Shown here: one piece after another, positions 20,734 through 49,050 of the stretch
Layout: each line of letters begins with the position of its first letter
How positions within the stretch are numbered: the stretch's first letter is position 1
From: a virus
Length of the DNA stretch: 64,000 nt
Reading direction: 5' to 3' (one strand)
Virus record (IMG/VR): IMGVR_UViG_3300022561_000009
Notes under the pieces: model-generated
The model's database searches: none
What the model was told of the DNA's origin: nothing
What the model saw: only the letters and a program-made list of their open reading frames with translations
Program-made: the position numbers and the translations under genes

Positions 20734-20757
20734 GATATTCCTTCACCCCTTGATCCT

Positions 20758-20766: not shown

Positions 20767-20837
20767 TTAAGTCCAATGACTTACAAGGACTTGCAAGCAT
20801 CTGCTTTATGATATATAGTATCCTTGAGGTGATATTT

Positions 20838-20996: not shown

Positions 20997-21005
20997 CAGG
21001 CTCTT

Positions 21006-21471: not shown

Positions 21472-21511
21472 GTTGTTTCCTCCAAAAAAGGGAGAGAGCC
21501 GAAGCCCTCTC

Positions 21512-21676: not shown

Positions 21677-21726
21677 TGTTTCACCTCCATAAAGATAAGG
21701 CGAGTATTACTACCCGCCTAGTTGAA

Positions 21727-22728: not shown

Positions 22729-22806
22729 TTCTTTCACTCCTTAAATTTGCTCATAATAAAAGGACCCCTCATTTCGAGAAGCCCAACCGATTCAACTAAC
22801 TATGAC

Positions 22807-23199
22807 CTATCTCCTAAAATAGCCCGAGACAGCATTAGCACCATCAGTCGCACTAATCTCAAACACTCCCGAAGTAACAGTCGCCGTTGCCAGCAATCCT
22901 GTAGCATCAATCGTAACCTTCGATCCAATCAATGTAGCTGCTACTACAGCAGAACTTGTGGTAGAGAACTCAGTACCCTCTTTAACGCGTGTGACAGGCA
23001 ATGGTGTAACAGAAGTAGCCTCTGCCACTCTACTTGCTACAGCGATAAACTCAGGGGTTGCAGTAGCCCCACACTTAGTCAATCTCCCAGCTGTCTGTAC
23101 CAATGCTTCCCCAAGGGTCGCGCCCTCTGCATTAGTTAAAAGATAATACTCGAATGGATCTTGCGCTCCGTCAATATTTCCTACTCGTTTAAAAGCCAT
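22807..23199 (-). CDS. head decoration/cement-type protein candidate
   Basis: 130 aa, Ala/Thr/Val-rich beta protein between scaffold and capsid genes. RBS AGGAGTG. Confidence 0.45.
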   Translation of the reverse strand: MAFKRVGNIDGAQDPFEYYLLTNAEGATLGEALVQTAGRLTKCGATATPEFIAVASRVAEATSVTPLPVTRVKEGTEFSTTSSAVVAATLIGSKVTIDATGLLATATVTSGVFEISATDGANAVSGYFRR

Positions 23200-23214
23200 T
23201 TAAAATCACTCCTA

Positions 23215-24165
23215 TTATTTATTACTTGCTTTGTAATGTTTTTTGAACTGTTCGTCAGTCCCTTTGGGGTTAAATCTACGGTACTGCTCCATTACATCAT
23301 CGGGCACAACAGTCATATCAGAATCCGTTCCCTTACCATTGCCCTTCACGTGAGCCTTACCCTGGATACTGTTCAGCGTGGCTTGCCGAGTGGCATCAGT
23401 TTGTTTAGCCGCAATCTCTTTGCGTTGCGAAGTGTAGTAGGCATCCACTAATGAAATGCCTGATTGACCGCCTTTCCATAACTGCCAAACTGCTTGAGGT
23501 ACATCGTTCGCTTCAGCCATATCAGGAAATTCCTTGGTTAGTTCGCCAAAACTGTCCACAAGGAATCTGTCATGTTGTTCTTTTTCCGCGACTTTTTGAG
23601 TTTCAGCAAATGCTTCGTTGTTCTCTCTCGCCCGTTTAACGTCAGGATGTTCGGCAACAATCTTGTTAATCACTTCGGGGTCAATTCCCTTGTCTTTGTA
23701 CTCTTGAAGTAAGGCTTCTTGTTCCTCACGTTTCAACGCTACATCAAGCTCTGCAAGCGTCTTAACTCCGTGGCTTTCACCATACTTTTCAGCGACATCA
23801 GCATCCGAGTAAACGCCATATTGACCATACTTCTTGGCTATCTCTCTATCTGATGTTCGCTGGGCTTCGATTTCAGTTACTCGTTTTTCCGCCGCTTCTA
23901 GCTTGCGCCTGTTATCAGCGAAGGCACGATCTTGTTCAGGGGTTTGCTTCGTTTGAGTGGCGGGCTCATCCACACTTTTTTCAGTGTCGGTTACGCCTTC
24001 CATTGGCTCTGCTTTTGTTTCCGGATCCGCAGTTTCTTCTACGGGTGATTCTGTTTCTAATGGTTCGGTTGAGACTTCATCTTGGGGTGCAGCGGAATCC
24101 CCTCCTACGCTACTATCCTCAGCAAAAAGCTGTAAGTTCATTGGGATAAATGATGTCTTAAACAT
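23215..24165 (-). CDS. scaffolding protein
   Basis: Acidic, helical/coiled-coil 316 aa. N-terminal NLQLFA motif common in phage head-assembly proteins. Located between portal region and capsid. Confidence 0.7.
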   Translation of the reverse strand: MFKTSFIPMNLQLFAEDSSVGGDSAAPQDEVSTEPLETESPVEETADPETKAEPMEGVTDTEKSVDEPATQTKQTPEQDRAFADNRRKLEAAEKRVTEIEAQRTSDREIAKKYGQYGVYSDADVAEKYGESHGVKTLAELDVALKREEQEALLQEYKDKGIDPEVINKIVAEHPDVKRARENNEAFAETQKVAEKEQHDRFLVDSFGELTKEFPDMAEANDVPQAVWQLWKGGQSGISLVDAYYTSQRKEIAAKQTDATRQATLNSIQGKAHVKGNGKGTDSDMTVVPDDVMEQYRRFNPKGTDEQFKKHYKASNK

Positions 24166-24279
24166 TATTGTTCTCCTTGCGTTTGCACCCGCCGGCGTAT
24201 TACCTGTCTAATTCCAGGAGCCATCCACTACTAGGCAAAGAGAAAAGGCGACTCGTATTGCCGCCTTAATATAAATAAA

Positions 24280-24399
24280 TTATTTACCGGAACGAAGGTC
24301 TTTACCGGTGGATTTGATTGGCTTGGCGTTTGATTTATTGATGTTCGTCGCTTTGATGTAACCTGCGCTGTTTTGGGGGATCTTAATTTTCTCACTCAT
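24280..24399 (-). CDS. small basic protein, 39 aa
   Basis: Manual ORF MSEKIKIPQNSAGYIKATNINKSNAKPIKSTGKDLRSGK. RBS GGAAGGGAGG. Confidence 0.45.
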   Translation of the reverse strand: MSEKIKIPQNSAGYIKATNINKSNAKPIKSTGKDLRSGK

Positions 24400-24518
24400 G
24401 TTGTTGCCTCCCTTCCTTAAAGATGGGCATATAATAAGAGCCGTTTTTTACGACTCGTCAGCTGGCATTTATTAAATTAAAGCAATGGCATCAACTACTT
24501 TCATAGCGTTAGATTAAT

Positions 24519-24809
24519 TTAGCACTTCTTACCTTTCTTCATTGCCTTTTTCTTCGGCATCGCCACCCCAGGCATTCCGATACCTGGCATCGCCTTCGCC
24601 AACATCATGTCGATTTTGGCAGAGGTTTTCTTTTTGTCTGTAGGCTTCTTTGGGGTTTGTCCTTTTTTAGCAGGACCGCCAACCATTTCCCCTGAGCTTC
24701 CAATACTGTTAGGAGTTTTGTTTGCAGGATTAACCGCCTTGCCCTTTTTCCCTGCGAGCATTGCCTTGAATGCATTTTGTGCGGCCTTTTGTTTTGGTGT
24801 TGATGCCAT
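24519..24809 (-). CDS. highly basic Lys-rich protein (possible packaged DNA-binding protein)
   Basis: MASTPKQKAAQNAFKAMLAGKKGK...PKKPTDKKKTSAK...MPKKKAMKKGKKC. Start ATG 24809 overlaps the upstream stop (TAATG). Confidence 0.6.
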   Translation of the reverse strand: MASTPKQKAAQNAFKAMLAGKKGKAVNPANKTPNSIGSSGEMVGGPAKKGQTPKKPTDKKKTSAKIDMMLAKAMPGIGMPGVAMPKKKAMKKGKKC

Positions 24810-25237
24810 TATTCGTTTCCTTCTTTCAATAAATCTTTTACCGAGTAAACAGAACAAAATATCTTGGATAAATTAACTACCATTGATTCAACGAATTGCA
24901 TTTTCTGTCTCCTAACAATTGTGGGAGAATCTATTTCATCCATTAAATCATCTGCCATATCGCTTATATCACCTACGACAATGTGATAGAGCTCATGGGT
25001 AATTGATTCCTCCCAATGCTCATCTAACGCCGAATGGTCCTGATTAACGTGGATGATCGCTTCTTTTCTCAGTCTGTTTCTCTCACACATCATGGCAGTA
25101 TCTAGGTTATCTGAATCGAAGATATGTTTCATTTCGTACTGGCTTATATAATCGACCGAAATATCCCAATTCTGAATACGCATTATTTTAGCGAGAGACT
25201 TTACAATTTCTTCGAGCTTTTCTTTTGAAGGTAGCAA
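24809..25237 (-). CDS. hypothetical head-module protein with HExxH motif
   Basis: ITHELYHIVVGD contains a possible zinc-metallopeptidase motif. TTG start 9 nt after AAGGAGGG, immediately after the portal stop. Confidence 0.5.
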   Translation of the reverse strand: MLPSKEKLEEIVKSLAKIMRIQNWDISVDYISQYEMKHIFDSDNLDTAMMCERNRLRKEAIIHVNQDHSALDEHWEESITHELYHIVVGDISDMADDLMDEIDSPTIVRRQKMQFVESMVVNLSKIFCSVYSVKDLLKEGNE

Positions 25238-27343
25238 TTATTGTTGCCCTCCTTGACCTTGCATCATCTGTTGAATTATCTCAATCTTTTTATCATCTGG
25301 TAGCTGAGCGAACGCTTGTTGCTCTTCTGGTGTCATATTTTGCATAGCACCTTCTAGCAACTTTTGAACATCCACCTGTGCGTTTGTCCCATCTTGCGGT
25401 TGCTGTGGCTGTGGAGGTTGTTCTGTCCCCTGTGGTGGAACTTGTTCCGGTTGCCCGTGATCTACTTGTGACTGATATGTTTGCTCTTGTCCGGATGGCA
25501 CTAATGGTTGACCGCCATTGGACTTAATACCGAGTTTTTGTAGGAACTGAGCTTGAGCGTCCGGCATCATATCTTTGTAATTTGTCGTGACCTTCGGAAC
25601 GGTAGGCGGCGTTTTCGCCATGTTCTCCATTTGCTTATTGATGGTGTCGAGAATAATTTTAGCATTAGGGTATTTCTGAGCAACCATCTGAGTCCAAAAG
25701 ATTACACTCGCAGGAGTGGCATTGAACCCGCCATATTTAAGTTGTTCGTTCGCTTGAGAAAATAGCCACATCTTGTCTCTTGGAAGTCCTGAACCCGCAT
25801 CTGCTTGAAAGATAAAGTCTGTGTTGTAGTAAAGTTCTCCTGCTTTGTCTCGAACTAAGAAAGCATATTTATTAAAATCGCCGAATGAATCTTGACCGTT
25901 CGCATCTTTTGTAACATAGGGGCGAAGTTCATCATAGAAAGCGAGTTTAAACTCAAACATGGTTTCGTACATTTGCTTAAACGCTGCATACTTGTTTGAT
26001 TCCTTAGAGCGCAACCGCCCGCTTGCTTGCTGAACTTGAATTTGTTTAGCGACTCCGCTTGTTGCCGTTGTGTCTGCCTTACCTTGGAAACTATTTGTAA
26101 TACCGAGGGTTGACTGTGCCGACCTGTATTGCTGTTGAGCGAACGCCATATCATTGCTGATGTCGGCTTGTAGGTTCTTGACACCAAGAGCACTTAGTTC
26201 TGATTGCGTACCTCTTATAATCGCGTAAAGTTCATTTGTGAGATTGAGCCTGTGACCTTCTAACGCTGTGACGATAGCACTACCGCGCAGGATCTTTTCC
26301 TCAATGGTACTTACGACACGTTTCATTGCATCTTGTTGGTCACGAATAGCGTCTACGTCCGACTGACCACCAAACGCAAAGTTGAGAGGAATATTTTCTC
26401 GGACAATTAACGGGTATCGAGTAGGAGTAAAGTAGGGAACCTTTTCTCCTGCTTTTATGACTTCACCATTCGATATAGTTATGTCACTGTCGAGAGTTTC
26501 TTCTGTAACAATCTTTCCGTCAATACGCCTTGCATAAAAATTCGGCAAATCTTCTAGGACGGTATCATCACACCAAGTAAACTTGCTAACCTCACCATCG
26601 TCATTCTTATACCAGCAAACAACTTCTGTTACCATATCTGGATTGTTAGGCTGTGACGAATTGCCGACTAAACTATTCATATCAGGAAATTCTTCTCCGG
26701 CAGTATCCAGTTCAACGTCATAGCGCTTTTTGATAAATGCTTTTGTAACAGAAGAAACAATGAAGAAGTAATCCATCTTTTGAAGGTCCCATACGCCAAT
26801 CTGCGGGATAATTCGTTTCGGATGAATTGATTCTAACGATAATTCCCCACGGTAAAGATGATGTTTGAAATCAGGATTCCAATTAACGAGCATTGAAGAA
26901 AATCCCTGGACAGGAGTTATTCGCTCATTGACATCGTTTATGGCAGTGATTCCCAACTCCGTTATGTCTGCCGTTAAACTGTCCTCAATCATTCCTGCTT
27001 GAACTTCAAAGCCAGGTAGTTTAGTTCTGACGGACGGTTTAGGGATTGTTGAGTCTACCATCGTTTCAATGAATTCAAGGACAAGGTTTACAACGTTGTT
27101 GGCCTTTTTCCTTACGCCTTGTGAGTTGGAGGAATTGATATTTGCATCGACGATGGGTGTTCCAAGATAAATCATTTCGCGTTCGTCACGCAAGGTTGTG
27201 CAAGTTCCCGTTTTCGATATAGAGAATTTATCCTGCCATTTTTTTAAGTCTGAATTTTGTTTTGATTCTTCCTTGGCCGTTTGGATAGTGCTTTTAACTT
27301 TGTCCACTATTTTACCTCCGATCTCTTTTAGTTTTTCTAACAA
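25238..27343 (-). CDS. portal protein
   Basis: ~700 aa downstream of TerL with a Q/P-rich C-terminal tail. Start set to TTG 27343 (6 nt after AAGGAGGTG); the upstream in-frame ATG 27370 lies in the U-tract of the preceding terminator. Confidence 0.7.
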   Translation of the reverse strand: MLEKLKEIGGKIVDKVKSTIQTAKEESKQNSDLKKWQDKFSISKTGTCTTLRDEREMIYLGTPIVDANINSSNSQGVRKKANNVVNLVLEFIETMVDSTIPKPSVRTKLPGFEVQAGMIEDSLTADITELGITAINDVNERITPVQGFSSMLVNWNPDFKHHLYRGELSLESIHPKRIIPQIGVWDLQKMDYFFIVSSVTKAFIKKRYDVELDTAGEEFPDMNSLVGNSSQPNNPDMVTEVVCWYKNDDGEVSKFTWCDDTVLEDLPNFYARRIDGKIVTEETLDSDITISNGEVIKAGEKVPYFTPTRYPLIVRENIPLNFAFGGQSDVDAIRDQQDAMKRVVSTIEEKILRGSAIVTALEGHRLNLTNELYAIIRGTQSELSALGVKNLQADISNDMAFAQQQYRSAQSTLGITNSFQGKADTTATSGVAKQIQVQQASGRLRSKESNKYAAFKQMYETMFEFKLAFYDELRPYVTKDANGQDSFGDFNKYAFLVRDKAGELYYNTDFIFQADAGSGLPRDKMWLFSQANEQLKYGGFNATPASVIFWTQMVAQKYPNAKIILDTINKQMENMAKTPPTVPKVTTNYKDMMPDAQAQFLQKLGIKSNGGQPLVPSGQEQTYQSQVDHGQPEQVPPQGTEQPPQPQQPQDGTNAQVDVQKLLEGAMQNMTPEEQQAFAQLPDDKKIEIIQQMMQGQGGQQ

Positions 27344-32754: not shown

Positions 32755-33264
32755 TCATTCAGGCAATAGTACTTGGCTTTTCTCCATAATGTCAGCTACT
32801 CTCAATAGATCATCATTACTGAGATTAGCTATATTAGTAAGCGCAATGGGACCGCCATCTAGCCCAGTTATCTCAGTTTCAGTCTTATCCTTGTATCCAA
32901 GGCAATTCTTACCGAAGAACTGAGCGAATTGTGAGTTATAGAGATTTGACATGCCATTAACTAGCCAGATATGCTCTTGAAGTTGCTTGGCCCGCGCGTA
33001 TGCTTCGGAGAAAGCTTCATTATCATCCTTCCATCTATGCAAAGTATCAACATGAACCCCTATTTTATCGGCAAAGTCCTGAAAAGTTGGAAGGTCTGCT
33101 GCAACTGGGTATTCTTCCTTAGATTTTAATGTACCATCAGCATAGAAAGTTTCTTTGCTCTTCATTACTTGAGCTGGAACTCTAAAATGTTCTATAATCA
33201 GATCACAATATTCCGGCTTATACTTCGTTGGTTGTCCTTGTCCTGCCATCTTAAACAGCTCCAT
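32755..33264 (-). CDS. terS: terminase small subunit
   Basis: GQPTKYKPEYCDLIIEHF...FQDFADKIGVHVDTLHRWKDDNEAFSEAYARAKQLQEHIWLVNGMSNLYNSQFAQFFGKNCLGYKDK is the typical gp3-like small-terminase pattern. Alternative start ATG 33249. Confidence 0.8.
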   Translation of the reverse strand: MELFKMAGQGQPTKYKPEYCDLIIEHFRVPAQVMKSKETFYADGTLKSKEEYPVAADLPTFQDFADKIGVHVDTLHRWKDDNEAFSEAYARAKQLQEHIWLVNGMSNLYNSQFAQFFGKNCLGYKDKTETEITGLDGGPIALTNIANLSNDDLLRVADIMEKSQVLLPE

Positions 33265-33793
33265 TCATCCATTGTTTAATCTTAATCAATCTATCTTCAT
33301 CAAAGAACGCTATCTCTTTCCTATACCATTCTTCCATATCATTATTGCTCTTCCATATATTAAGCGGAGCGTCACACGGTAACACGTTGCATTTTTCATG
33401 CCCTCCATACTTCTTTAATGGCTTAATATGGTCCATTGACATGTGAATCATTGGCCTGCCTGAATAAGCGTCAAGTCCATCAAAGAAATCAATACACTCT
33501 ATCCATTCAGCAGTTGTTAAGGTATTCGGCGCGCCTGGTAATACTCGCTTACTATGAACAGTCACTAAACCTTCTTTGTGGTTGTATCCAATCTGCCTAT
33601 TGAGCATAATTTCTCGATGATCTAAATATCTCTTAGCTCCATATTCAGCGGTGCAGGTTTTACATTGAGAGAATAACTTATCTGTTTTATTGTAGGATCT
33701 GGCGAAGAATTCATTCGTTGCAGGCTGAACTACTTTACATTTGGTGCACCTCTTCATGCCTTCGGGTAATTCTTCCTTGATGTGTTTTGTCAT
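33251..33793 (-). CDS. HNH endonuclease adjacent to terS (packaging-associated type)
   Basis: CxxC N-terminus. MSMDHIKPLKKYGGHEKCNVLPCDAPLNIWKSN is an HNH core. Overlaps terS. Confidence 0.8.
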   Translation of the reverse strand: MTKHIKEELPEGMKRCTKCKVVQPATNEFFARSYNKTDKLFSQCKTCTAEYGAKRYLDHREIMLNRQIGYNHKEGLVTVHSKRVLPGAPNTLTTAEWIECIDFFDGLDAYSGRPMIHMSMDHIKPLKKYGGHEKCNVLPCDAPLNIWKSNNDMEEWYRKEIAFFDEDRLIKIKQWMNGAV

Positions 33794-33838
33794 TCTTAAA
33801 TCACTCTCCTACTATTATTTTCTCCTACTAGCGAACAC

Positions 33839-33875
33839 AAAAAAGGAACCTGGCCCATAGGAGGAAACCAGGTCC
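33839..33875 (-). terminator. rho-independent terminator upstream of HNH-terS
   Basis: GGACCTGG...CCAGGTTCC stem followed by UUUUUU on the minus strand. Confidence 0.7.
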
Positions 33876-34225
33876 ATATATAATCTGCTTGCTTATGGCA
33901 GAAACTTAGCTACCTTCTATAAGCTCACAAATAGCGCATCTAATACATTTATACTAAATGAGCTATTACTAAGCTCATACAGCTCCACAGAGTCTACACG
34001 TCGAATATAAGTAATATGTATAGCGCATCTACTCCCCATGAAGCAGTTTATCATTCTGCTGTGCGCTCCTCATGTTTGCGGTCCCTCCCCGTTTGTCACC
34101 TTCCGTTCTCGTCTTGCCTTCTTGATCCATTTAGATATCATTACACGCACCTCCTTCTCTATCATCTCTGCCGGCGAAGTTATCTCTATTAATAAGAGAG
34201 TGCCGTGCAAACAGATTTTATTGAC

Positions 34226-34240
34226 ATATGTCTTGACATC
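34226..34240 (+). promoter_or_regulatory. operator/-35 box copy 1 (ATATGTCTTGACATC)
   Basis: 15-mer identical to 34491-34505. Overlaps a TTGACA upstream of the RHH gene. Confidence 0.55.
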
Positions 34241-34275
34241 GTGATACCATTACACATAAAGGAGTTGAACTAATA

Positions 34276-34434
34276 ATGGCAGAAATAGACACCCGCGAGC
34301 GCATGACGTTGCGAATAACAGAGGACATCTGGCGACTAATCAAAATTGATCTAATGGACAAAAAGGAGCCATCAGCCAACGAGCTAATCACCAAGCTACT
34401 ATATAAGCATTACAACTTACCTCAGCCGGAATAG
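34276..34434 (+). CDS. ribbon-helix-helix regulator, 52 aa (first gene of the plus-strand block)
   Basis: Manual ORF MAEIDTRERMTLRITEDIWRLIKIDLMDKKEPSANELITKLLYKHYNLPQPE. RBS AAGGAG. Flanked by two copies of the same operator. Confidence 0.65.
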   Translation: MAEIDTRERMTLRITEDIWRLIKIDLMDKKEPSANELITKLLYKHYNLPQPE

Positions 34435-34445
34435 CTGGGGTTTTT
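34420..34445 (+). terminator. rho-independent terminator after the RHH gene
   Basis: CCUCAGC/GCUGGGG 7-bp stem followed by UUUUU. Confidence 0.6.
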
Positions 34446-34490
34446 CTATGCCCTAAATTGTGTGTGAAAATAGTACAATGAATTACTATA

Positions 34491-34526
34491 ATATGTCTTG
34501 ACATCAAGACATCATGGTAGTAGTAT
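34491..34526 (+). promoter_or_regulatory. promoter with palindromic operator (ATGTCTTGA-CA-TCAAGACAT)
   Basis: -35 TTGACA 34498-34503, 17-nt spacer, -10 TAGTAT 34521-34526. A perfect 9-bp inverted repeat spans the -35. Confidence 0.6.
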
Positions 34527-34564
34527 AAGTGACAAGAAGTAAAACATTTGAGGGGGAAAACAAA

Positions 34565-34843
34565 ATGACAAAGAGCGAAATGAAGCAAGAATACAACGAG
34601 CTCTGGGCATTATCCAACAACACAATGAACGATATCAGGGACACAGACACCTACACTAAAGACAATAAGTATTACGAATACATTGGGAGAAACGATCACA
34701 GCCTCTATTGTCTCGGAGGATCAGGAAGTTGGAGAATGAATAAACTCACCAAAACAGAACTAGCCAAAAAGATTATCCTGATAACTGAACAGCTCGGAAT
34801 ATTCAACACGATGCTCACTCAGCAATTAGCAAAAATAAACTAA
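34565..34843 (+). CDS. hypothetical protein
   Basis: 92 aa. ATG 34565 follows GAGGGGGA. Confidence 0.6.
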   Translation: MTKSEMKQEYNELWALSNNTMNDIRDTDTYTKDNKYYEYIGRNDHSLYCLGGSGSWRMNKLTKTELAKKIILITEQLGIFNTMLTQQLAKIN

Positions 34844-34887
34844 CTATCACAAGCGAGCTGGCGCATCCAGCGTAAGGAGGAAATAAA

Positions 34888-35052
34888 ATGGGTAAATGGA
34901 TAACAGGTGTTTATAAGAGTGAGCTACATTTTACCAGTGTTTATGTGGAGGATGGCCAAGATGAATTAGACGTATTATTTCCCGAAGGATATGAGGGAGA
35001 AATGTGGATATCTGATTTAAAAATAACCTCAGAACAACTAGACGAAGAATAA
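34888..35052 (+). CDS. hypothetical small protein, 54 aa
   Basis: Manual ORF MGKWITGVYKSELHFTSVYVEDGQDELDVLFPEGYEGEMWISDLKITSEQLDEE. RBS AAGGAGG. Confidence 0.55.
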   Translation: MGKWITGVYKSELHFTSVYVEDGQDELDVLFPEGYEGEMWISDLKITSEQLDEE

Positions 35053-35154
35053 TAGAATCCCGTTATCATTCTGAGAGCTTGTGCTCTCGTCCATACTTCC
35101 TAAAACTAGGGAGCGTGGACGAACGCAGAAACTAAATGAAAGAAGGCAAAACAC

Positions 35155-35322
35155 ATGAAAAACTTAATCTATATTCCTGGTTGGGGCCATTGCCAATTAA
35201 AAGAAACTATCAAGTCAATTCCAGTCAAGGCGCATTATTGCGGGACCGCAGAAGGCGAAGATGAGTCGAGCGAATACAGCATCTACGAAAAAGACAATAC
35301 ATTCTACTGCCTAGCTGAATAA
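35155..35322 (+). CDS. hypothetical small protein, 55 aa
   Basis: Manual ORF MKNLIYIPGWGHCQLKETIKSIPVKAHYCGTAEGEDESSEYSIYEKDNTFYCLAE. RBS GAAAGAAGG. Confidence 0.55.
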   Translation: MKNLIYIPGWGHCQLKETIKSIPVKAHYCGTAEGEDESSEYSIYEKDNTFYCLAE

Positions 35323-35329
35323 CATCCCT

Positions 35330-35382
35330 TCCCACCTGATGAGCTGGAAACAGCGAAACACGGTCAAAGCCGTGTCGTGGGA
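35330..35382 (+). ncRNA. hammerhead self-cleaving ribozyme (stem I open, type I topology)
   Basis: UCCCAC-CUGAUGA-GCUG(GAAA)CAGC-GAAA-CACGG(UCAAAG)CCGUG-UC/GUGGGA. Complete conserved core, G10.1-C11.1, A15.1-U16.1, GUC triplet. Predicted cleavage after C35376. Confidence 0.8.
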
Positions 35383-35410
35383 TAAACCACAAACGAAAGG
35401 AGCCAACACC

Positions 35411-35731
35411 ATGTCAAATGAATTCTACGACTACACCAACCAAGCTTGGGTAGTAAACGGTCACTACATCAAATGCGGTCATCCTGATTCAATGGATTGC
35501 GATTGCTACGGTAAACTACACGCCGGCGAAAAATGCACCGAGGAAACATACTTGGAAACACACCCAATTAAAGAACGCCCAGCAAAGGTATTTGAGATCC
35601 GCGGCGTTAACACTTGTAACTGCTTAGAACTTTCAGTAACAACCACAAGGAGAGAAGCAAACGAGATCGCAGAAGGCCGGCGGTCATGGGGTCATACTTC
35701 AATAACTATTGAGGAAGTCGAAAACGATTAA
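35411..35731 (+). CDS. hypothetical Cys/His-rich protein
   Basis: 106 aa. ATG 35411 follows AAAGGAG. The track ORF's N-terminal extension (from 35339) is the ribozyme, not coding. Confidence 0.6.
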   Translation: MSNEFYDYTNQAWVVNGHYIKCGHPDSMDCDCYGKLHAGEKCTEETYLETHPIKERPAKVFEIRGVNTCNCLELSVTTTRREANEIAEGRRSWGHTSITIEEVEND

Positions 35732-35749
35732 GAAAGGCGGCGCTACATT

Positions 35750-36217
35750 ATGAAATGGTTCAACGGCATTAACACGATTGAGGAATTAAAAAAAGCATTC
35801 CGCGCACTTGTAAAAAAGAATCATCCTGATGTTGGCGGCAATGAACAAGACATGAAGGACATTAACAACGAATACGAGATCATGTTTGCATACATCGAGA
35901 AGCACGGCGGCCAAAGTAAAAATCACAGTGTCAACGATGGATTCCGTGAGGCAATGGAAAAGGTAATAGACTTAGAAGGTTTAAACATTGAAATTTGTGG
36001 TAGTTGGATATGGTTAAGCGGTAACACCTACCCATACAAAGCCGTAATTCGTGAAGCCGGTTTTAGATGGGGAGCAAAGAAGAAAATGTGGTTCTGGCAT
36101 AGCGAAACCGAAACGAGCAACAACCGCAAAACAATGTCAATGGATAACATCCGATCCCTGCACGGGTCCGAAGTTATCAAGGGAACTGTAAGAACCGAAA
36201 AGAAGGCCATAGCATAA
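35750..36217 (+). CDS. J-domain (DnaJ-like) protein with GFRW-type C-terminal domain
   Basis: ELKKAFRALVKKNHPDVGGNEQDMKDINNEYEIMF carries the HPD motif. C-terminus ICGSWIWLSGNTYPYKAVIREAGFRWGAKKKMWFW. Confidence 0.8.
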   Translation: MKWFNGINTIEELKKAFRALVKKNHPDVGGNEQDMKDINNEYEIMFAYIEKHGGQSKNHSVNDGFREAMEKVIDLEGLNIEICGSWIWLSGNTYPYKAVIREAGFRWGAKKKMWFWHSETETSNNRKTMSMDNIRSLHGSEVIKGTVRTEKKAIA

Positions 36218-36218
36218 A

Positions 36219-36269
36219 GGGAGCTTATTCTCCCGTCAATGCACCTAATAAATTTAGATGTATTGACGG
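36219..36269 (+). ncRNA. conserved double stem-loop element, copy 1
   Basis: GGGAG(CUUAUU)CUCCC immediately followed by GUCAAUGCA...UGUAUUGAC long hairpin. Homologous to 36727-36784. Confidence 0.45.
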
Positions 36270-36302
36270 AGGAACAAACCACAAAGAAAGAAGGCACTTG
36301 AA

Positions 36303-36569
36303 ATGAACAAAGACACGAAGAACCTAAAACCTTTATACATCCCGCGCGAAGGTAACTGGAACTATTTCTTGGACCCTACATTTTTTAACACCGTCTTTTG
36401 TATCGCTAAACCTGGTACCGATTGCAAGTCTAGCATGTTCGGAAATGTTCAATACTTTACTAATTGGCTAAGACGCGAACTTGAAAAAGATCCAACCATT
36501 GACGGACGCTTTACCGCTTTATGTTTCGGATTGCTGGACGAAGCACAAGGAAAGGCGGCGAGAGTATGA
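36303..36569 (+). CDS. hypothetical protein
   Basis: 88 aa. RBS GAAAGAAGG. Confidence 0.6.
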   Translation: MNKDTKNLKPLYIPREGNWNYFLDPTFFNTVFCIAKPGTDCKSSMFGNVQYFTNWLRRELEKDPTIDGRFTALCFGLLDEAQGKAARV

Positions 36570-36721
36570 ACGACTACAATTACAAGGAACTAAACGCCCT
36601 CCTAGCTAAGGAGAAGCTAACACCGAAGGAGAACAAGAGAAAGCACTCACTATTAGATCAGTACGAAGAAGAACAAGCGACAAGGGATTACAAGTCATGG
36701 TGCAACAATCAGCCAATTTAA
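36566..36721 (+). CDS. hypothetical small protein, 51 aa
   Basis: ATG 36566 after AAGGAAAGG. Overlaps the upstream stop (ATGA). MNDYNYKELNALLAKEKLTPKENKRKH... Confidence 0.5.
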   Translation: MNDYNYKELNALLAKEKLTPKENKRKHSLLDQYEEEQATRDYKSWCNNQPI

Positions 36722-36726
36722 ACAGT

Positions 36727-36784
36727 GGGGATTTTTCCCCCGTCAATACGCCAACCACACAAACCCAGGCGGGCGCATTGACGG
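36727..36784 (+). ncRNA. conserved double stem-loop element, copy 2
   Basis: GGGGA(UUUU)UCCCC followed by CCGUCAAUACGCC...GGCGCAUUGACGG. Shares CCGUCAAU/AUUGACGGA with copy 1 while the distal stem differs. Confidence 0.45.
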
Positions 36785-36817
36785 AAGAGAAAGCCGAAGG
36801 AAAGAAGGAAAATTATT

Positions 36818-37315
36818 ATGAACAAAGCCGAAAACCTAAACGTACTGAAAACCCTGGAAACATTCCGCGTTAAACTTGCAACCGGAGCAATGTCAGGGGA
36901 TGCAGAATGGGCCGTAAGAATCTGCCAGGCACATATAGCAGCGGAACATTTTAACAGCCGCTCCGATTGGACCGAGCTCCTAAGAGAAGCGGCGGAACCG
37001 GTAAAGGAAATCAAACCCATTAACCCAGCCGTGAAAACCTATGAGCAATGGAGCGAAAGCCGGCAGGACCTTTCAAAGTTTTTACAAATTGGGGACCTAG
37101 TTGACGAAGAAATAGCAGAGTATTTTATAAACGTATTACCGCCCGCGTGTATGTCCGGCGGAATCGTACAAATTGGTGAACCTAGTGACCATGTAGAAGG
37201 CCACGCAACTTATGAAACACTTAAGCGAACGTCTGACGGTTGGCAGTATGCCGGAACTTGTCACAGAGGACAAACGGAACACAAAGCAGGGGAAACAATC
37301 ACCTGGAACAGCTAG
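36818..37315 (+). CDS. hypothetical protein
   Basis: 165 aa. RBS GGAAAGAAGG. Ends in TAG followed by the conserved ACCAAGCAAUGGAAUCA motif. Confidence 0.65.
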   Translation: MNKAENLNVLKTLETFRVKLATGAMSGDAEWAVRICQAHIAAEHFNSRSDWTELLREAAEPVKEIKPINPAVKTYEQWSESRQDLSKFLQIGDLVDEEIAEYFINVLPPACMSGGIVQIGEPSDHVEGHATYETLKRTSDGWQYAGTCHRGQTEHKAGETITWNS

Positions 37316-37377
37316 CACCAAGCAATGGAATCACAAAGCGAGCCGGCGCAATCCGGCGAAGGAAAGAAGGTAACAAC

Positions 37378-37845
37378 ATGACAAGAAAATTTTCACCTGC
37401 TCAAATGAAATACATGAAAGCGAAGGCCATGCACGAAACTATTGTAAACCTCGAAAAGCAATGTAAAGAAAAGGTATTAGAGCAAAACGACTTCTGGAGT
37501 GTACCTGTTGAAGGCATCGACGAGAAAACAGAACGAATTTTAAAACCTGGTTACGACTTCACAATGTCAGACAAAGATTTTATAGAGTATTGCAAACTAG
37601 CCCGCGAACAATACCAAGCCATAGGAATCGAAACGCCAGACTATAATACTAGCCCTACTTATAAATCAAGGCCGGCACTAAAGAAGGCCGAAAGAGAATT
37701 AATCGAATGGGGTTGGTTAATACTTCGATCACATCCTAAGTATTCAGCAGTAGCCGCAGGCATCGAAAACCTGAAAAAAGAAATAACCCATAATACAGAA
37801 ATACGCGAAAAGGTAATTGACTTAACTTTAAGCCTAGTAGCATAG
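37378..37845 (+). CDS. hypothetical protein
   Basis: 155 aa. ATG 37378 after GGAAAGAAGG. Ends in TAG followed by the conserved motif. Confidence 0.65.
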   Translation: MTRKFSPAQMKYMKAKAMHETIVNLEKQCKEKVLEQNDFWSVPVEGIDEKTERILKPGYDFTMSDKDFIEYCKLAREQYQAIGIETPDYNTSPTYKSRPALKKAERELIEWGWLILRSHPKYSAVAAGIENLKKEITHNTEIREKVIDLTLSLVA

Positions 37846-37948
37846 GACCAAGCAAGGGAATGACTAAAAGCAGCTTATTCCCCTGCTTTGGGATCCTGCA
37901 TCATAACAGGGTAACAAAGCGGAAGAATAAACGAAAGAAGGCCAACAC

Positions 37949-38872
37949 ATGAACATTATCAACGAGCAACTAGCCAGACGCAGTAAAGAAAATATGAGCT
38001 TTTCAGACTACACACCAGGCAGTGCAACCGCAGAGTACAATCAACTAATATCTGATGCTACCGAAAAGATTGAGGAGGCGAAGGAAAGAGTATCTGACGA
38101 AGGCAAGCAACGACTAGACACCCTGTTAGCACGTTACTCAGCTAATTATGCTAGCTGGATAAACAGACAGAACAAAAACGGCGCCGGCCATGTCAGCGTA
38201 ATGCTTGCAGGACCTAGTAACTACAACATGAGAGCCCACGAAAAATATATGAGCAGGGAATCTAAACTGTGGGCCGAGTATGACGAATTGAAAAATTATA
38301 TTGAGAATGGAATCTACAGTATAATAAATGGTGACAGAATCATAAAATCAAATGATGTTAACGCCATCGACAAACTGAAGGAGAAACTAGCCAAGCTGGA
38401 AGAAATGCAGAACCTAATGAAATCAGCTAACAAAATAGTGAAGAACAAAAAGTTTACGGATGATGTAAAAATTGAGCTACTTGTAGAAATGGGAATAAGC
38501 GAAGCGAAAGCAGCCAGCCTATTACTTCCCAGTCATTGTTGCGCATGTGGTTTCGCGTCCTACGAGCTAACAAACAACAACGCCACAATCCGAAACACCA
38601 AGCAACGTATTGCGCACCTTGAACGGCTTGCAGCGCAGGAAACGAAAGAAATCATCATTGAAACGGAATCAGATGAAAGCAACGGAATCAGGATCGTTGA
38701 CAATGTAGCGGCGTGTCGCTTACAAATATTCTTCAACGGCAAACCTTCCGCAGAAACCAGGACCGCATTAAAGAAAAATGGATTCAGATGGACACCATCA
38801 ATAAGCGCATGGCAATCATACCGGAGCGATCACGCAAACACCGCAGCGCAGGAAATAGTTAACGCCATGTAG
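37949..38872 (+). CDS. DUF3560-like protein with GFRW-type C-terminal domain
   Basis: HVSVMLAGPSNYNMRAHEKYMSRE and C-terminal RLQIFFNGKPSAETRTALKKNGFRWTPSISAWQ match my recollection of DUF3560 proteins of plasmids, ICEs and phages. Confidence 0.6.
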   Translation: MNIINEQLARRSKENMSFSDYTPGSATAEYNQLISDATEKIEEAKERVSDEGKQRLDTLLARYSANYASWINRQNKNGAGHVSVMLAGPSNYNMRAHEKYMSRESKLWAEYDELKNYIENGIYSIINGDRIIKSNDVNAIDKLKEKLAKLEEMQNLMKSANKIVKNKKFTDDVKIELLVEMGISEAKAASLLLPSHCCACGFASYELTNNNATIRNTKQRIAHLERLAAQETKEIIIETESDESNGIRIVDNVAACRLQIFFNGKPSAETRTALKKNGFRWTPSISAWQSYRSDHANTAAQEIVNAM

Positions 38873-39008
38873 AACCGAGCGGTGGAATCAGACCGACGCG
38901 CAAAAATATTAGCGGGGGAATCAATAAAGTATTTCCCCACTTCTGCGCCTAAACAAAAAAAGATTAGACGTACAAGTGAGGGAATATCATTAAGGAGGAA
39001 TCAGTGGA

Positions 39009-39899
39009 ATGACAGAAAATGAATTAATGCCTATTGAACTTTCGATCATGCCAACGAGTAAAGTCGTTGAATACTTCTTAGGCCAACAATCAGAAGGAAC
39101 CGCCAGGACATATGGCAGTGCAATTCGTGGGTTTGTCGCTTGGTCATGTAATCAGGACTACAGAACAATTACACCGTTTCAAGCAATGGATTTCAACGAG
39201 CATCTAAAAGCTACCTGTTCGCCAGCCACGGTTCAGCGTCAAATTGCAACACTCAAGATGTTTTTCAAGTTTGCACTCGAATGTGGACTGATTACAAAAA
39301 ACCCATTCGCATTAATTAAGCAACACGGAGCAGTTAGCACAGCAGGTCAAAAGTTTCTAACAGTCAAAGAAATTGACTTCTTGCTTGCAGAACTTGAGAA
39401 AGCTGGACCACGCCAGCACATTCTAGGTCTTATACTCGTTTATACAGGCATGAGAATCAGTGAAGTGGCTGGACTCTCATGGTGTGACGTAACCGAGATG
39501 CCAGGAGGCGAAATATATCTAAATATTTTACGCAAAGGTGATAAACGCCAAATGCTCTATCTTCGACCTGATGTAACAAAGGTCCTTATGGAGTACATGG
39601 ACCGGCCATTAAACCAATTAGACCACAGTCCGTTGTTCCTGAACCCGCAGGGGAATCGCGTGAGTGACGTGAGCTTGCGTACCTGGATTATAAAGGCCGG
39701 AAAAAAGGCAGGAATAAAAAAGCATTGCAACCCCCATATTTTACGGCATACGTTTGTTTCTCACTGTATTGCCAATAATGCTGATATGAGAGCAGTACAA
39801 CAGTATGTCGGACACGCGCAAATCACAACCACACAAATCTATTGGCACAGTGATAATGACAAGGTTTCCGACTTCATGCCGAATAAGATAAGTGAGTAG
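39009..39899 (+). CDS. tyrosine recombinase, XerC/D-like (second recombinase of the element)
   Basis: N-terminal SAM-like core-binding domain. Catalytic pattern GMRISE ... HILRHTF ... GHAQITTTQIYWH (R, H-x-x-R, H, Y). Confidence 0.85.
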   Translation: MTENELMPIELSIMPTSKVVEYFLGQQSEGTARTYGSAIRGFVAWSCNQDYRTITPFQAMDFNEHLKATCSPATVQRQIATLKMFFKFALECGLITKNPFALIKQHGAVSTAGQKFLTVKEIDFLLAELEKAGPRQHILGLILVYTGMRISEVAGLSWCDVTEMPGGEIYLNILRKGDKRQMLYLRPDVTKVLMEYMDRPLNQLDHSPLFLNPQGNRVSDVSLRTWIIKAGKKAGIKKHCNPHILRHTFVSHCIANNADMRAVQQYVGHAQITTTQIYWHSDNDKVSDFMPNKISE

Positions 39900-39904
39900 A
39901 TATT

Positions 39905-39934
39905 AAAAAGGCTTCCCATTTCGGAAGCCTTTTT
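39905..39934 (+). terminator. bidirectional rho-independent terminator ending the plus-strand operon
   Basis: AAAAA-GGCTTCC(catttc)GGAAGCC-TTTTT. Confidence 0.8.
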
Positions 39935-39961
39935 GTTTATCTTACCCCCAGGAAAAATAGC

Positions 39962-40120
39962 TTATTGTGGAATATAAACGCTAGCGTTTTCCTGCATCAT
40001 TCTTTCAAATATCTTAAAGCTAGAATCTTCATCGTACACATCAAATTCACTGCATAACTCTTTTTGTGGCTTATCTTTTTTAGGACAAGTCTTTACATGA
40101 ACACAGTTTTTACACAACAC
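39962..40120 (-). CDS. Cys-rich small protein, 52 aa
   Basis: Manual GTG-start ORF (M)LCKNCVHVKTCPKKDKPQKELCSEFDVYDEDSSFKIFERMMQENASVYIPQ. RBS AGGGGGA. Confidence 0.4.
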   Translation of the reverse strand: MLCKNCVHVKTCPKKDKPQKELCSEFDVYDEDSSFKIFERMMQENASVYIPQ

Positions 40121-40147
40121 ATACAATTCCCCCTAAAATTAAATAAG

Positions 40148-40195
40148 AAAAAGGACCCGCAGTGAACCGTTTATTAGACGGGGGCAGGTCCTTTT
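40148..40195 (-). terminator. bidirectional hairpin terminator after the ArpU-like gene
   Basis: AAAAA-GGACCCGC...GCAGGTCC-TTTT. Confidence 0.6.
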
Positions 40196-40284
40196 GTTGT
40201 TAAATACTTACATCTTATATGATATCATCTTGATTTCACTATAACCATATGCTTATTAGGTAAAAAACTGGTAATCAATCAATA

Positions 40285-40812
40285 TTACTTCCTAAAGTAT
40301 AAATATCGTTGAAATAATGGCCCGAGTATTTGCCACAGAATTCCTAACGCCTCTTTATTTATCTTGCGTATTCCCTCTGACATAATGTAAACCCTGCCGA
40401 CTGAATGGCGCTCATTAAACGTTATTTCTATGTTTCTCCATGACTCAGACTCAAAATACTTTGCTCTGATAACCGTTTCTTGCTCCCTAGTCAATGCCTT
40501 CAATGCAACGTCAATCTGTTCTATCTCTATCGATTTATAGCGCACCTTGGATTTATCCTCGTCAATCCATTCTTGCACCATTTCAGTAGTAACTTCCCTT
40601 TGTACCGCTATGTGTTCAGTGGGAGAGGTTGTCGTAGTCGCGTGAGGCATACCTGGTATTATGCTAACAGAGTTCTCGAACAGCCACATTTGCCCAGCTT
40701 TCAGAGCTTCTTCCCATACTTCTACTCTTTGAGAGGTTGTAATGACTTCGGCTTTGTGCTTTTTGTAAAGTTTCAAGCGTTCTTCTAGTATGTTTTGACT
40801 TTCCTTTATCAT
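40285..40812 (-). CDS. ArpU/RinA-family late transcriptional activator (sigma region-4-like)
   Basis: LKALTREQETVIRAKYFESESWRNIEITF...VGRVYIMSEGIRKINKEAL fits ArpU-family regulators. Last gene of the early/middle cluster. Confidence 0.65.
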   Translation of the reverse strand: MIKESQNILEERLKLYKKHKAEVITTSQRVEVWEEALKAGQMWLFENSVSIIPGMPHATTTTSPTEHIAVQREVTTEMVQEWIDEDKSKVRYKSIEIEQIDVALKALTREQETVIRAKYFESESWRNIEITFNERHSVGRVYIMSEGIRKINKEALGILWQILGPLFQRYLYFRK

Positions 40813-47646: not shown

Positions 47647-47797
47647 TTTTTTCTTCCCCCTCTAAGAATTCCAATCTTTTTACGTATGCCTTTTGGTTTG
47701 CATTGAAGTCCTGGTGTTGGAGAATAATCTCAAAATTCAAGAGGTCAAGCGTCTCTTTTGATTCAGCGGTTTGGATTCTTTCGATTAGTGGTGTCAT
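47639..47797 (-). CDS. hypothetical small protein, 52 aa
   Basis: Manual ORF MTPLIERIQTAESKETLDLLNFEIILQHQDFNANQKAYVKRLEFLEGEEKNA. ATGA overlap with the sigma gene stop. Confidence 0.45.
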   Translation of the reverse strand: MTPLIERIQTAESKETLDLLNFEIILQHQDFNANQKAYVKRLEFLEGEEKNA

Positions 47798-49050
47798 ACT
47801 GCTAACCCCCGCATCATTTCTTCTAATCGTTCGTCAAACTCTTTAGCGGCCTTATCCATATGTGCCTTTCTTAATTTGGAAATTGACTGTTGAATGTATG
47901 ACCATTTTTCTTCGATGAAGTCCGGTTCGTTCGTGATTGGTTCTGTCCATTCAGGCTTTATTTTTACTTCAATTTCCATATCGTCGATGGTTTGTGTTGG
48001 GGTTGGTGTTTCAATTGGCGCATTAGTTCCTTGTAGGATAACATTTTCACCCCACGAATCATCTTCACAAGAATCATCGTCGTGCGTTACCGTTTCCGTT
48101 TCGCTAGGGTGCGAGAGAATTGTATCTATTTCCTGACCCGCAAGTTTTTTCTTTAGTCCAAAGGCTGTACCGTAATTAACTCCATACAACCTAGCTACGT
48201 CTGCCGGACTTCCAATCTCGTTAAACTGTTCAGTTGTCGTAACCTCTTGTTGCAATTTGAATTTGTTTTCACGTTGCTCAATGCTCAACATTTTCTTTTC
48301 CTCCTCGTTTTTAATTGGTCCAGCGTATCCGTGATCTATCCGGTCCCTTTCTCTTTGCCCATATTGTTTAGCAATTCTCATAAGTTTTGTTTTAAGTCTG
48401 GATAAATACGATTGAGAAATTCCCATTATCTCTGCCGCTTTACGTTGCGTCATTCCTTCAACTACGCACAGCCTACAGACTTCTCGAAGCTGTTCGGGCA
48501 ACTCTGACATTAAATCTCTGATTACTTCTTGGTCCTCGTTACTCTCATCATTACTTCCTAACATATCAGCCAAGTGTAGACTTCCATCTTCTGTATTAAT
48601 TTCTCTGTCTATGCTGTCGGTGTTCACGGCAATACTCGCCAAAACTGCTTCTTTTGCATCATCAAAACTAATGCCGGCCTTATCCGCAATTTCCTGAATT
48701 GTTTCGTTTCCGTTTAATCCAGCGGCGTTAATCTTTGCAATTAAGTTAATTCCCCTACACCCTAGATGAATCGGACGGTCCGTTTGGCGAATATATGTCA
48801 TAAGGTAACCTGTAATCATTGACCCCGCATATGTGCTGAACTTTATTGGTTTATCGTCTATGCCGAGACGGTTAGTTGGGTCAAAGCGTTGGTATGATTT
48901 AACTAAGCCGTGATAAGCAATTCCTCTTAGGTCATCAATATCTCTATCTTTTGAAGCATTGAAGAATTTCCAAGCGATTGAATGAGCTAATCCCATATTG
49001 GCTTTTATATAATCATCAGCGGAGCCTGGTAGATGCGGGTTTTTATCCAT
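47794..49050 (-). CDS. sigma-70 family RNA polymerase sigma factor (group 3 / SigF-SigB-like) with ~165-aa C-terminal extension
   Basis: Region 2 (YHGLVKSYQRFDP...FSTYAGSMITGYLMTYIRQ), region 4 (LPEQLREVCRLCVVEGMTQRKAAEIMGISQSYLSRLKTKL). Internal in-frame ATG 48291 is preceded by GAGGAGG. Confidence 0.8.
   Translation of the reverse strand: MDKNPHLPGSADDYIKANMGLAHSIAWKFFNASKDRDIDDLRGIAYHGLVKSYQRFDPTNRLGIDDKPIKFSTYAGSMITGYLMTYIRQTDRPIHLGCRGINLIAKINAAGLNGNETIQEIADKAGISFDDAKEAVLASIAVNTDSIDREINTEDGSLHLADMLGSNDESNEDQEVIRDLMSELPEQLREVCRLCVVEGMTQRKAAEIMGISQSYLSRLKTKLMRIAKQYGQRERDRIDHGYAGPIKNEEEKKMLSIEQRENKFKLQQEVTTTEQFNEIGSPADVARLYGVNYGTAFGLKKKLAGQEIDTILSHPSETETVTHDDDSCEDDSWGENVILQGTNAPIETPTPTQTIDDMEIEVKIKPEWTEPITNEPDFIEEKWSYIQQSISKLRKAHMDKAAKEFDERLEEMMRGLAV

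Follow-up and report, generated by a model that had tools for sequence, protein, structure and literature searches.

A phage gene block with exchangeable ribozyme and pseudoknot spacers: a probable accessory operon of insulated gene cassettes

Clustered hammerhead ribozymes flank single genes in prophages, including around ardA, and a role in the processing of polycistronic RNA has been proposed for them (Perreault et al. 2011, PMC3088659). Several ribozyme classes, along with some motifs that do not cleave, share these gene neighbourhoods, according to the twister work and the RAGATH study of Weinberg et al. (2015), as recounted in PMC6765202. The purpose of phage and bacterial ribozymes in such neighbourhoods has been an open question since 2011-2015 (PMC3088659, PMC6765202). 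The viral sequence IMGVR_UViG_3300022561_000009 (IMG/VR) contains a block of twelve genes, g01 to g12, at positions 34226-39934 with structured RNAs in its spacers. The window is the whole 64,000-nucleotide (nt) stretch; the block is the part under study, and L-numbers denote relative loci.

Every spacer of more than 40 nt in the block holds a recognisable structured RNA element. The original prediction, made from the sequence alone, had claimed structured RNA in nearly every spacer; this is borne out, and the recurring modules exceed chance. The block is probably an accessory operon of the ribozyme-flanked type in which self-contained RNA leaders insulate shuffled gene cassettes (probability roughly 0.6). 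This reading is based on the anatomy of the block, the conservation and covariation of the spacer RNAs, their interchange with known ribozymes in the same slots of related operons, and breakpoints that fall at the modules.

Structured RNAs in the spacers

Module A consists of a hairpin P1 of 5-6 bp (GAGRG/CYCUC) and an abutting hairpin P2 (6 bp, a 1x1 mismatch and 6-7 bp). A G(G/A)A linker follows, then a tail that pairs with the P1 loop; the Shine-Dalgarno sequence lies 5-8 nt further on. The copies in the block are as follows, scored with R2, a covariance model of module A built in this analysis.

35066-35145, plus strand: module A copy 1, with P1 GAGAGC/GCUCUC, abutting P2, tail and Shine-Dalgarno (R2 87.8 bits; fold z-score -4.8)
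36212-36292, plus strand: module A copy 2 (R2 74.6 bits)
36719-36807, plus strand: module A copy 3 (R2 60.6 bits; fold z-score -3.9)
37856-37940, plus strand: module A copy 4, divergent, directly 5' of g11 (R2 33.5 bits; fold z-score -4.7)
38907-39001, plus strand: weak, degenerate module-A-like element in the 136-nt spacer before g12 (R2 12.4 bits; E 0.06 in 5.8 kb with filters off)

In copy 4, P1 is GGGAAU/AUUCCC with a large loop, and the tail AAUAA complements UUAUU. Covariance models find 20 sense-strand copies of module A at E <= 3.6e-5 in 788 kb of related loci; five further copies in L128/L129 and two in L134 bring the total to about 27, all on the sense strand. In L058, a close relative of copy 1, 86% identical over 106 nt, precedes the g11 homologue. 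Copy 2 is kept in L128 (6011-6089) with compensatory changes.

The pairing of module A is supported by covariation. In 19 distinct sequences, 94% of cells pair, compared to 47-53% with slid partners; 19 of 21 pairs are altered on both sides, and none of 500 shuffles attains the observed value. The same picture is seen in a MAFFT-only control alignment. The pseudoknot covaries though it lies outside the covariance model: one position is UA in seven sequences, AU in four and CG in four, and the paired segments include UUUU:AAAA, UUCUU:AAGAA, UUAAG:CUUAA, UUAU:AUAA, UUUG:CAAA and UUUUAG:CUAAAA. The sense strand scores 87.8 bits and the antisense strand 32.2 bits; G-U pairs are frequent. Module A therefore appears to work as a sense-strand RNA, not as a DNA element.

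Among the 4227 families of Rfam 15, none overlapped a module at E <= 10 in 33800-40300, though a module may correspond to a RAGATH candidate that was never deposited. Models of twister, pistol, hatchet, twister-sister, hepatitis delta virus (HDV)-like and RAGATH-5 RNAs did not match the modules in L001, L089, L106, L119, L123, L128 and L129. Module A was rejected as a pistol or HDV-like RNA on its helix order, which we take to differ from theirs, and on the absent Rfam match. It may tentatively be regarded as an uncatalogued class of pseudoknotted RNA that replaces twister, pistol, hammerhead and RAGATH-5 RNAs in the same slots, either as a new ribozyme or as a non-catalytic equivalent.

That modules A and/or C are new self-cleaving ribozyme classes, and that the transcript is cut to single-gene mRNAs by RNA alone, is unlikely. 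The modules share slots and strand with twister, pistol and hammerhead RNAs and occur in several copies per operon; the compact pseudoknotted fold of module A covaries; and RNAs near ribozyme-associated genes earlier gave twister-sister, pistol and hatchet (PMC6765202). However, several motifs of such context failed to cleave when tested (PMC6765202), and no Rfam ribozyme model matches the modules. In addition, known small ribozymes have larger conserved cores, and the sparse conserved unpaired nucleotides of the modules make a new class less likely.

The modules without ribozyme character may instead be processing or stability sites that depend on host ribonucleases (RNase III, Y or J1). With no linker between them, P1 and P2 give about 18-20 stacked bp with a conserved 1x1 mismatch, a purine-rich Shine-Dalgarno is always found downstream of the module, and the end result would equal that of ribozyme cleavage. 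A covarying loop-tail pseudoknot is, however, not typical of known RNase III substrates. Host-nuclease processing also overlaps with the insulated-cassette reading, as it has the same purpose and another executor; it is a close variant of that reading and is possible, if doubtful.

One spacer holds a known type of ribozyme core.

35330-35382, plus strand: type I hammerhead ribozyme candidate with full core, detected with a strict descriptor

The conserved core positions C3-U4-G5-A6-N7-G8-A9, G12-A13-A14, A15.1-U16.1 and H17 are all present, with CUGAUGA at 35336-42, GAAA at 35355-58 and GUC at 35374-76. Stem I (UCCCAC/GUGGGA, 6 bp) is open; stem II (GCUG-GAAA-CAGC, 4 bp) and stem III (CACGG-UCAAAG-CCGUG, 5 bp, or 6 counting the A15.1-U16.1 pair) are looped. 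Cleavage is predicted between C35376 and G35377. The predicted 3' product begins with a conserved hairpin, GUGG-GAUAAA-CCAC, which is followed by the Shine-Dalgarno.

This candidate is the sole match to the strict type I descriptor in 0.54 Mb, both strands, and its bare core pattern is expected 0.08 times per window by chance. Folded as a hammerhead, the RNA is no more than 1.2 kcal/mol above the minimum free energy. In L128 (5278-5349), a homologue with 85% identity lies between other genes than here; one pair of its stem III shows a compensatory change from A-U to C-G. The hammerhead named in the original prediction thus has a full core and recurs in L128, although its Rfam score is below threshold; at gathering level, Rfam has no match in the whole window. 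The L128 homologue has C in place of U4 in its catalytic core, and a frameshift divides the J-domain gene beside it (5549-6017). The two elements may be in decay in L128, or may contain assembly errors.

Module C is a short hairpin with the consensus CGA-GCYGG(G)-CGG..AU-(C)CCRGC, located 0-15 nt before a Shine-Dalgarno. Two copies are present in the block.

34854-34871, plus strand: module C copy 1, CGA-GCUGG-CGCAU-CCAGC hairpin, just 5' of the g03 Shine-Dalgarno
37339-37357, plus strand: module C copy 2, CGA-GCCGG-CGCAAU-CCGGC, after the post-stop element ACCAAGCAAUGGAAUCAC (37317-37334)

Nine more sense-strand copies with covarying stems are found by descriptor in other loci. The evidence for module C is from descriptors and not from a covariance model, as MAFFT did not keep the 5-bp and 6-bp stems in register. 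In L057 (1112-1161) and L130, ribozymes or RAGATH-5 RNAs are followed by a short GC-rich hairpin, an A-rich stretch and a Shine-Dalgarno; the hairpin is positioned like module C.

A post-stop element, ACCRAGCRRKGGAAUSA, follows the TAG of g09, g10 and g11 (37317-37334, 37847-37864 and 38874-38891), and GGAAUCA occurs twice more before g12 (38912-38925 and 38995-39010). In other loci, a search for this element gave only 13 matching nt in L007, immediately upstream of the recombinase gene there. A MAFFT alignment of the three TAG-ACCAAGC... spacers is uninformative. The element may represent partial or degenerate remnants of module recombination rather than a motif of its own. Its CCAAGC was also considered as a twister loop; this was rejected, as there is no flanking P4 stem and no Rfam match.

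Different RNAs in the same spacer slots of related operons

Approximately 130 loci were fetched via two anchor genes, the DUF3560-like g11 and the J-domain gene g06; the named hosts are Clostridia/Bacillota metagenome-assembled genomes. The block has the same position in L001, L002, L004, L007, L123, L134 and the Faecalibacterium phage FP_Toutatis, where it lies beside a homologue of the 175-aa minus-strand gene and near terS. It is present in related phages as a unit, and its modules are conserved beyond this genome. The gene content of the relatives' blocks is mostly different; the only recurring genes are a ribbon-helix-helix (RHH)-like gene, the J-domain gene, g11 and, in some cases, the recombinase.

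Known RNAs are found in the same intergenic slots of the relatives, all on the sense strand. Twister-P5 is detected at gathering level in L004 (two copies), L005, L009 (two copies), L068, L084/85, L090, L091, L100 and L119, and pistol in L057, L084/85 and L100. Type II and III hammerheads were found with our own descriptor in L039/40, L042, L069, L076 and L102, and twister-like RNAs with our own model in L132 and L134. Ribozymes of different classes therefore recur near g11 and J-domain homologues, as in RAGATH-type neighbourhoods. Together with RAGATH-5, the twister-P5, pistol and hammerhead RNAs of the homologous operons bear out the earlier view of this region as a ribozyme-rich prophage neighbourhood. 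In L085, an int-alpA RNA (RF02996, 42.6 bits, above gathering) lies on the minus strand at 1923-1990, a few kb upstream of the twister/pistol operon.

The slot directly 5' of the g11 homologue differs in kind between phages. It contains twister-P5 in L005, L084/85 and L090, pistol in L057 and L100, a type II hammerhead in L069, module C in L061, L075, L080 and L094, and module A in the window, L058, L006, L007, L004 and L128. Mixed operons also occur: L119 has four copies of module A and a twister, and L134 has two copies of module A and a twister-like RNA. In many relatives (L001, L002, L003, L089 and the proteins P0053, P0055, P0063 and P0070), the DUF3560-like protein is fused to a variable N-terminal extension and reaches a total length of 358-637 aa; in these loci the upstream spacer slot is absent.

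FP_Toutatis (MG711466; L130 is its record from 12967 to 25848) is a cultured phage with the same layout. At 2567-6962 of the locus, an opposite-strand array of small genes lies between terS and a late regulator annotated as 'antiterminator Q'. The array contains seven RAGATH-5 RNAs (RF02685), six of which reach at least the gathering score; six start 3-7 nt past a stop codon.

Sequence breakpoints between relatives fall at the modules. L058 joins window position 35149 to 37928, at a module-plus-ribosome-binding-site junction. The sequence that L106 and L123 have in common runs as far as one module A and resumes within the following one.

These mosaic breakpoints are shared by a second explanation, in which the block is an integron-like or independently mobile cassette array and the recombinase g12 acts on the hairpin spacers as DNA sites. 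As in integron arrays, the small promoterless genes all point the same way, are separated by structured repeats and lie near a tyrosine recombinase. In the window, L007, L119 and L134 the operon ends with a recombinase, and the spacers have imperfect inverted repeats with conserved outer arms (GTCAAT...ATTGAC). Unlike integron arrays, however, this family has an optional recombinase without integron-integrase features, repeats of a sense-strand RNA type, and no attI/Pc. Several module-bearing relatives, such as L001, L004 and L128, have no recombinase homologue in the stretch examined; of the relatives studied, only four have a block that ends in such a homologue (L007, L119 and L134/L135, with a partial one in L065).

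The remaining evidence also opposes a mobile array. The modules form a strand-specific structure in which G-U pairs are numerous and the pseudoknot involves a single-stranded tail. Among integron-integrase models, g12 reaches 82 bits with TIGR02249 (cut-off 265) and 44 with NF011946 (cut-off 435), and is co-oriented at the 3' end rather than divergent beside attI/Pc. Direct repeats of at least 9 nt between the block flanks were not found, and the block is syntenic in related phages. The integron or mobile-array reading appears largely refuted and is very improbable; the mobile insert considered in the original prediction falls on the same missing repeats, syntenic position and optional recombinase.

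A third explanation is that the spacer structures are binding sites for an operon-encoded protein, such as g06 or g11, which represses or couples cassette translation. g11 homologues are the conserved anchor of the operon family, g06 and g11 have a small C-terminal module in common, and every module lies directly 5' of a Shine-Dalgarno. The C-terminal module in the g11 model weakly resembles the DNA-binding domain of phage T4 MotA (probability 0.84, E 0.32); this structural match is, however, not significant. L106 and L123 have module A but no g11 homologue within the 9-10 kb examined, and one binding protein fails to explain several ribozyme classes in the same slots. Such a role is rather improbable.

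Layout, genes and cargo of the block

The block is the single long plus-strand run in the window (34276-39899 on open reading frame maps); the rest of the genome is almost entirely coded on the minus strand. AT skew reverses sign across exactly 34-39 kb, from about -0.1/-0.2 to +0.16/+0.34. Both results agree with the earlier description of the only long plus-strand block. The control elements are as follows.

34221-34250, plus strand: P1 promoter-like site, TTGACA-18-TACCAT, TG-extended and sigma-70-like, overlapping operator copy 1
34419-34441, plus strand: terminator-like hairpin over the end of g01
34491-34526, plus strand: operator copy 2 (34491-34505) overlapping P2 (TTGACA-17-TAGTAT, 34498-34526)
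39904-39935, both strands: bidirectional intrinsic terminator with a 13-bp stem, an A run before it and a T run after it

The operator ATATGTCTTGACATC occurs twice (34226-34240 and 34491-34505), on either side of the 52-aa gene g01 (34276-34434); the repeat pair that was said to bracket a small RHH gene is confirmed. Copy 2 is part of an extended palindrome, ATGTCTTGA-CA-TCAAGACAT, which is kept in L128 at 4893-4912. The motif CATATGTCTTGACA of the P1 promoter region is also found upstream of the homologous operon in L004. The hairpin at 34419-34441 is possibly an attenuator between the two promoters. Upstream of P1, 430 nt of non-coding, pyrimidine-rich sequence (33794-34220) extend to the start of a minus-strand 180-aa gene; this is presumably a divergent promoter region, with a late promoter or packaging site.

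The 13-bp stem and T run at 39904-39935 match the strong terminator proposed earlier to close the block. Sub-threshold Rfam matches to Phe_leader, STnc230 and ctRNA_p42d (39884-39994) were rejected as leaders or small RNAs, being merely the hairpin of this bidirectional terminator. Between 34600 and 39900, a simple scan detected no promoter-like site on the plus strand; the only terminator-like hairpin inside the block is weak and lies within g12. A single transcript is the simplest reading, since there is no internal plus-strand promoter-like site and one strong terminator; from these signals we infer that the whole block is transcribed as one unit of about 5.4 kb. The block has no blastn match in 50,697 phage records.

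All twelve genes have an ATG start and a Shine-Dalgarno. In seven of them (g04, g05, g06, g07, g09, g10 and g11) this is a purine sequence of the GAAAGAAGG, GAAAGGAG or GAAAGGCGG type, the same number as counted before. The genes are listed below.

34276-34434, plus strand: g01, 52 aa, RHH-like putative repressor
34565-34843, plus strand: g02, 92 aa
34888-35052, plus strand: g03, 54 aa
35155-35322, plus strand: g04, 55 aa
35411-35731, plus strand: g05, 106 aa, Cys-rich
35750-36217, plus strand: g06, J-domain protein with a C-terminal GFRW module (phrog_15863 match, 6e-41)
36303-36721, plus strand: g07 (88 aa) and g08 (51 aa), the start of g08 overlapping the g07 stop
36818-37315, plus strand: g09, 165 aa (phrog_33611)
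37378-37845, plus strand: g10, 155 aa
37949-38872, plus strand: g11, DUF3560-like, conserved anchor gene of the operon family
39009-39899, plus strand: g12, XerC/D-like tyrosine recombinase

g01 has no Pfam match. The best PDB matches of its family profile are to the omega RHH repressor over the whole length, and are weak (2bnw, E 0.07; 1irq, E 0.22). Homologues of g01 are found near the operon head in L128, L058 and L004; in L119 and L007, small proteins with a weaker RHH likeness stand first.

The J-domain call for g06 is partly upheld: the HPD motif (H25-P26-D27) is invariant across 18 homologues, although the PF00226 score is below the cut-off (E 5.6e-5; 23.6 bits, cut-off 27.8). The DUF3560 call for g11 is in a similar position. 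The AlphaFold2 model of g11 (pLDDT 86.7) matches viral DUF3560 proteins and polyvalent-protein segments (E 2e-18), although the Pfam score is weak (PF12083, 15.9 bits, cut-off 27.2); some g11 homologues do carry PF12083. A PDB fold search with this model gave no significant match. g06 and g11 have in common a C-terminal GFRW module of about 38 aa (hhalign probability 80%, E 1.3e-5), in support of the tail noted earlier on both proteins.

g09 matches 90-98-aa proteins of related phages through its C-terminal half only; used as an anchor in viral contigs, it recovered no relatives. PDB sequence searches with g05, g09, g10 and the g11 profile gave nothing meaningful.

g12 belongs to the tyrosine recombinase superfamily (PF00589, E 4e-32; 111.8 bits, cut-off 27.1). 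It is below equivalog level for both XerD (153.7 bits vs 329.6) and XerC (149.4 vs 335). A canonical lysogeny pair, a cI-like helix-turn-helix (HTH) protein and a 379-aa integrase, is located elsewhere in the window at 60981-62452; g12 is therefore the second recombinase of the phage, and the block ends in it as had been claimed. Its homologues stand at the operon end in L007 (50%), L119 (60%) and L134.

The labels given earlier to the flanking genes are less secure. No family match was found for 40285-40812 (labelled ArpU/RinA) or for 33251-33793 (labelled HNH), and the terS label has a match that is weak and below cut-off (GP3_package, E 5.7e-6). Other minus-strand genes of the window include a T5orf172/MUG113-domain gene (59590-60549) and a gene for a 418-aa sigma-70-like protein (47794-49050).

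No anti-defence gene is recognisable in the window and PADLOC gives no defence or anti-defence match there, which leaves the earlier anti-defence reading unproven; ArdC and polyvalent domains are found in relatives only. The cargo of relatives (L119 7026-9927; L132 1536-1712 and 3251-3685) comprises ArdC (ArdcN and MPTase-PolyVal), PAPS reductase, LPD11 and DarA_C-like proteins, and also a serine recombinase with HTH. By its domains, this cargo is a polyvalent-protein or anti-restriction repertoire.

Proposed function and comparison with known systems

In the proposed model, the whole block would be a single accessory operon with a polycistronic transcript, and its RHH-like protein would probably act as the repressor at the operator shared by both promoters. 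The operon occupies a genomic slot that is conserved but highly variable; in a lineage of temperate phages that probably infect Bacillota (Clostridia), this slot separates the late-regulator gene from the terS end of the late genes. It is built of small cassettes, each with a self-contained RNA leader and a purine-rich Shine-Dalgarno; the putative leaders here are one type I hammerhead, four to five copies of module A and two of module C. Each leader may uncouple its cistron from upstream RNA, so that translation and stability are independent of the neighbouring cassette. The hammerhead would achieve this by cleavage, which leaves a 5'-OH end with a terminal hairpin; module A would achieve it by autonomous folding beside an open Shine-Dalgarno. 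The repeated leaders may also supply homology for cassette exchange between phages.

A number of points weigh against this model. Because most loci were gathered with g11 and the J-domain gene as anchors, the link to this gene set is partly built in. The hammerhead is under every Rfam gathering score (best HH9, 23.3 bits, E 0.026; gathering 52) and has no evident tertiary contact; cleavage may be weak or dispensable because core U4 is changed to C in the L128 homologue. Conservation of unpaired nucleotides in module A is sparse and concerns essentially the G(G/A)A linker and a UU of the P1 loop, and the insulating role of the module is inferred by analogy to synthetic RiboJ-type insulators and 5' stabilisers. 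The accessory or anti-defence nature of the window genes finds no support in Pfam, PDB and NCBIfam searches, which are mostly empty. The notion of a wholly ribozyme-processed operon is unproven: a known ribozyme is present in only one of about nine structured spacers, and the remaining structured spacers match no Rfam family.

The operon family nevertheless offers a clean comparative system, with a fixed slot, one promoter region, a conserved anchor gene and exchangeable spacer RNAs. If a non-cleaving fold does replace a ribozyme, the selected function is probably the effect on the downstream cistron and not cleavage itself. A non-catalytic outcome for module A would thus be the more telling one, as it would reveal the role of bacterial and phage ribozymes (5'-end protection, insulation). 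In Gram-positive synthetic biology, the modules may also find use as natural insulator parts.

The early operon of phage T7 and Bacillus phage SP82 have intergenic RNase III sites; those of SP82 have a polypurine 5' stabiliser. Like the spacers here, these are structured intercistronic elements followed by a purine-rich ribosome-binding stretch, and yield separate stable mRNAs. They are, however, plain bulged hairpins cut by a host enzyme; module A is a covarying pseudoknot that shares its slots with ribozymes.

Hyperplastic regions of T4-type phages reportedly contain promoter-early stem-loop (PeSL) cassettes. In both systems repeated intergenic modules bound small accessory genes and coincide with recombination breakpoints. 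PeSLs consist of a promoter and a simple stem-loop, whereas the present operons have one promoter region and ribozymes or pseudoknots.

RiboJ is a synthetic ribozyme insulator, and to our knowledge a natural counterpart has not been demonstrated so far. It has a hammerhead and a hairpin 5' of the ribosome-binding site, which make expression independent of the sequence upstream, and the predicted 3' product of the hammerhead here is likewise headed by a hairpin; RiboJ differs in being an engineered part.

Leading regions of plasmids, integrative and conjugative elements and phages are reported to carry anti-defence sets of polyvalent proteins. DUF3560-like, ArdC/MPTase-PolyVal, LPD11 and DarA_C-like proteins are common to these sets and the operon family. 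The window differs in that only the DUF3560-like gene is recognisable and PADLOC recovers none.

The hammerhead clusters of Perreault et al. (2011) are alike in having intergenic ribozymes in long phage transcripts, variable single genes or short blocks, frequent proximity to an integrase, and anti-restriction cargo (ardA there, ArdC in the relative L119). Here, in contrast, there is one sub-threshold type I hammerhead, most spacers contain non-ribozyme motifs, and the operon has a repressor/operator head and a fixed genomic slot. The RAGATH neighbourhoods (RF02684, RF02679, RF02685) are alike in that twister-P5, pistol and RAGATH-5 occupy the same slots of homologous operons; they differ in that modules A and C fall outside the Rfam 15 families.

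Compared with these systems, the operon architecture is new, with its repressor/operator head, anchor gene and fixed slot, as is the comparative evidence for breakpoints at RNA modules. Sequence comparison also gives good support to a new covarying pseudoknotted motif, absent from Rfam 15, that appears to replace ribozymes in most slots here.

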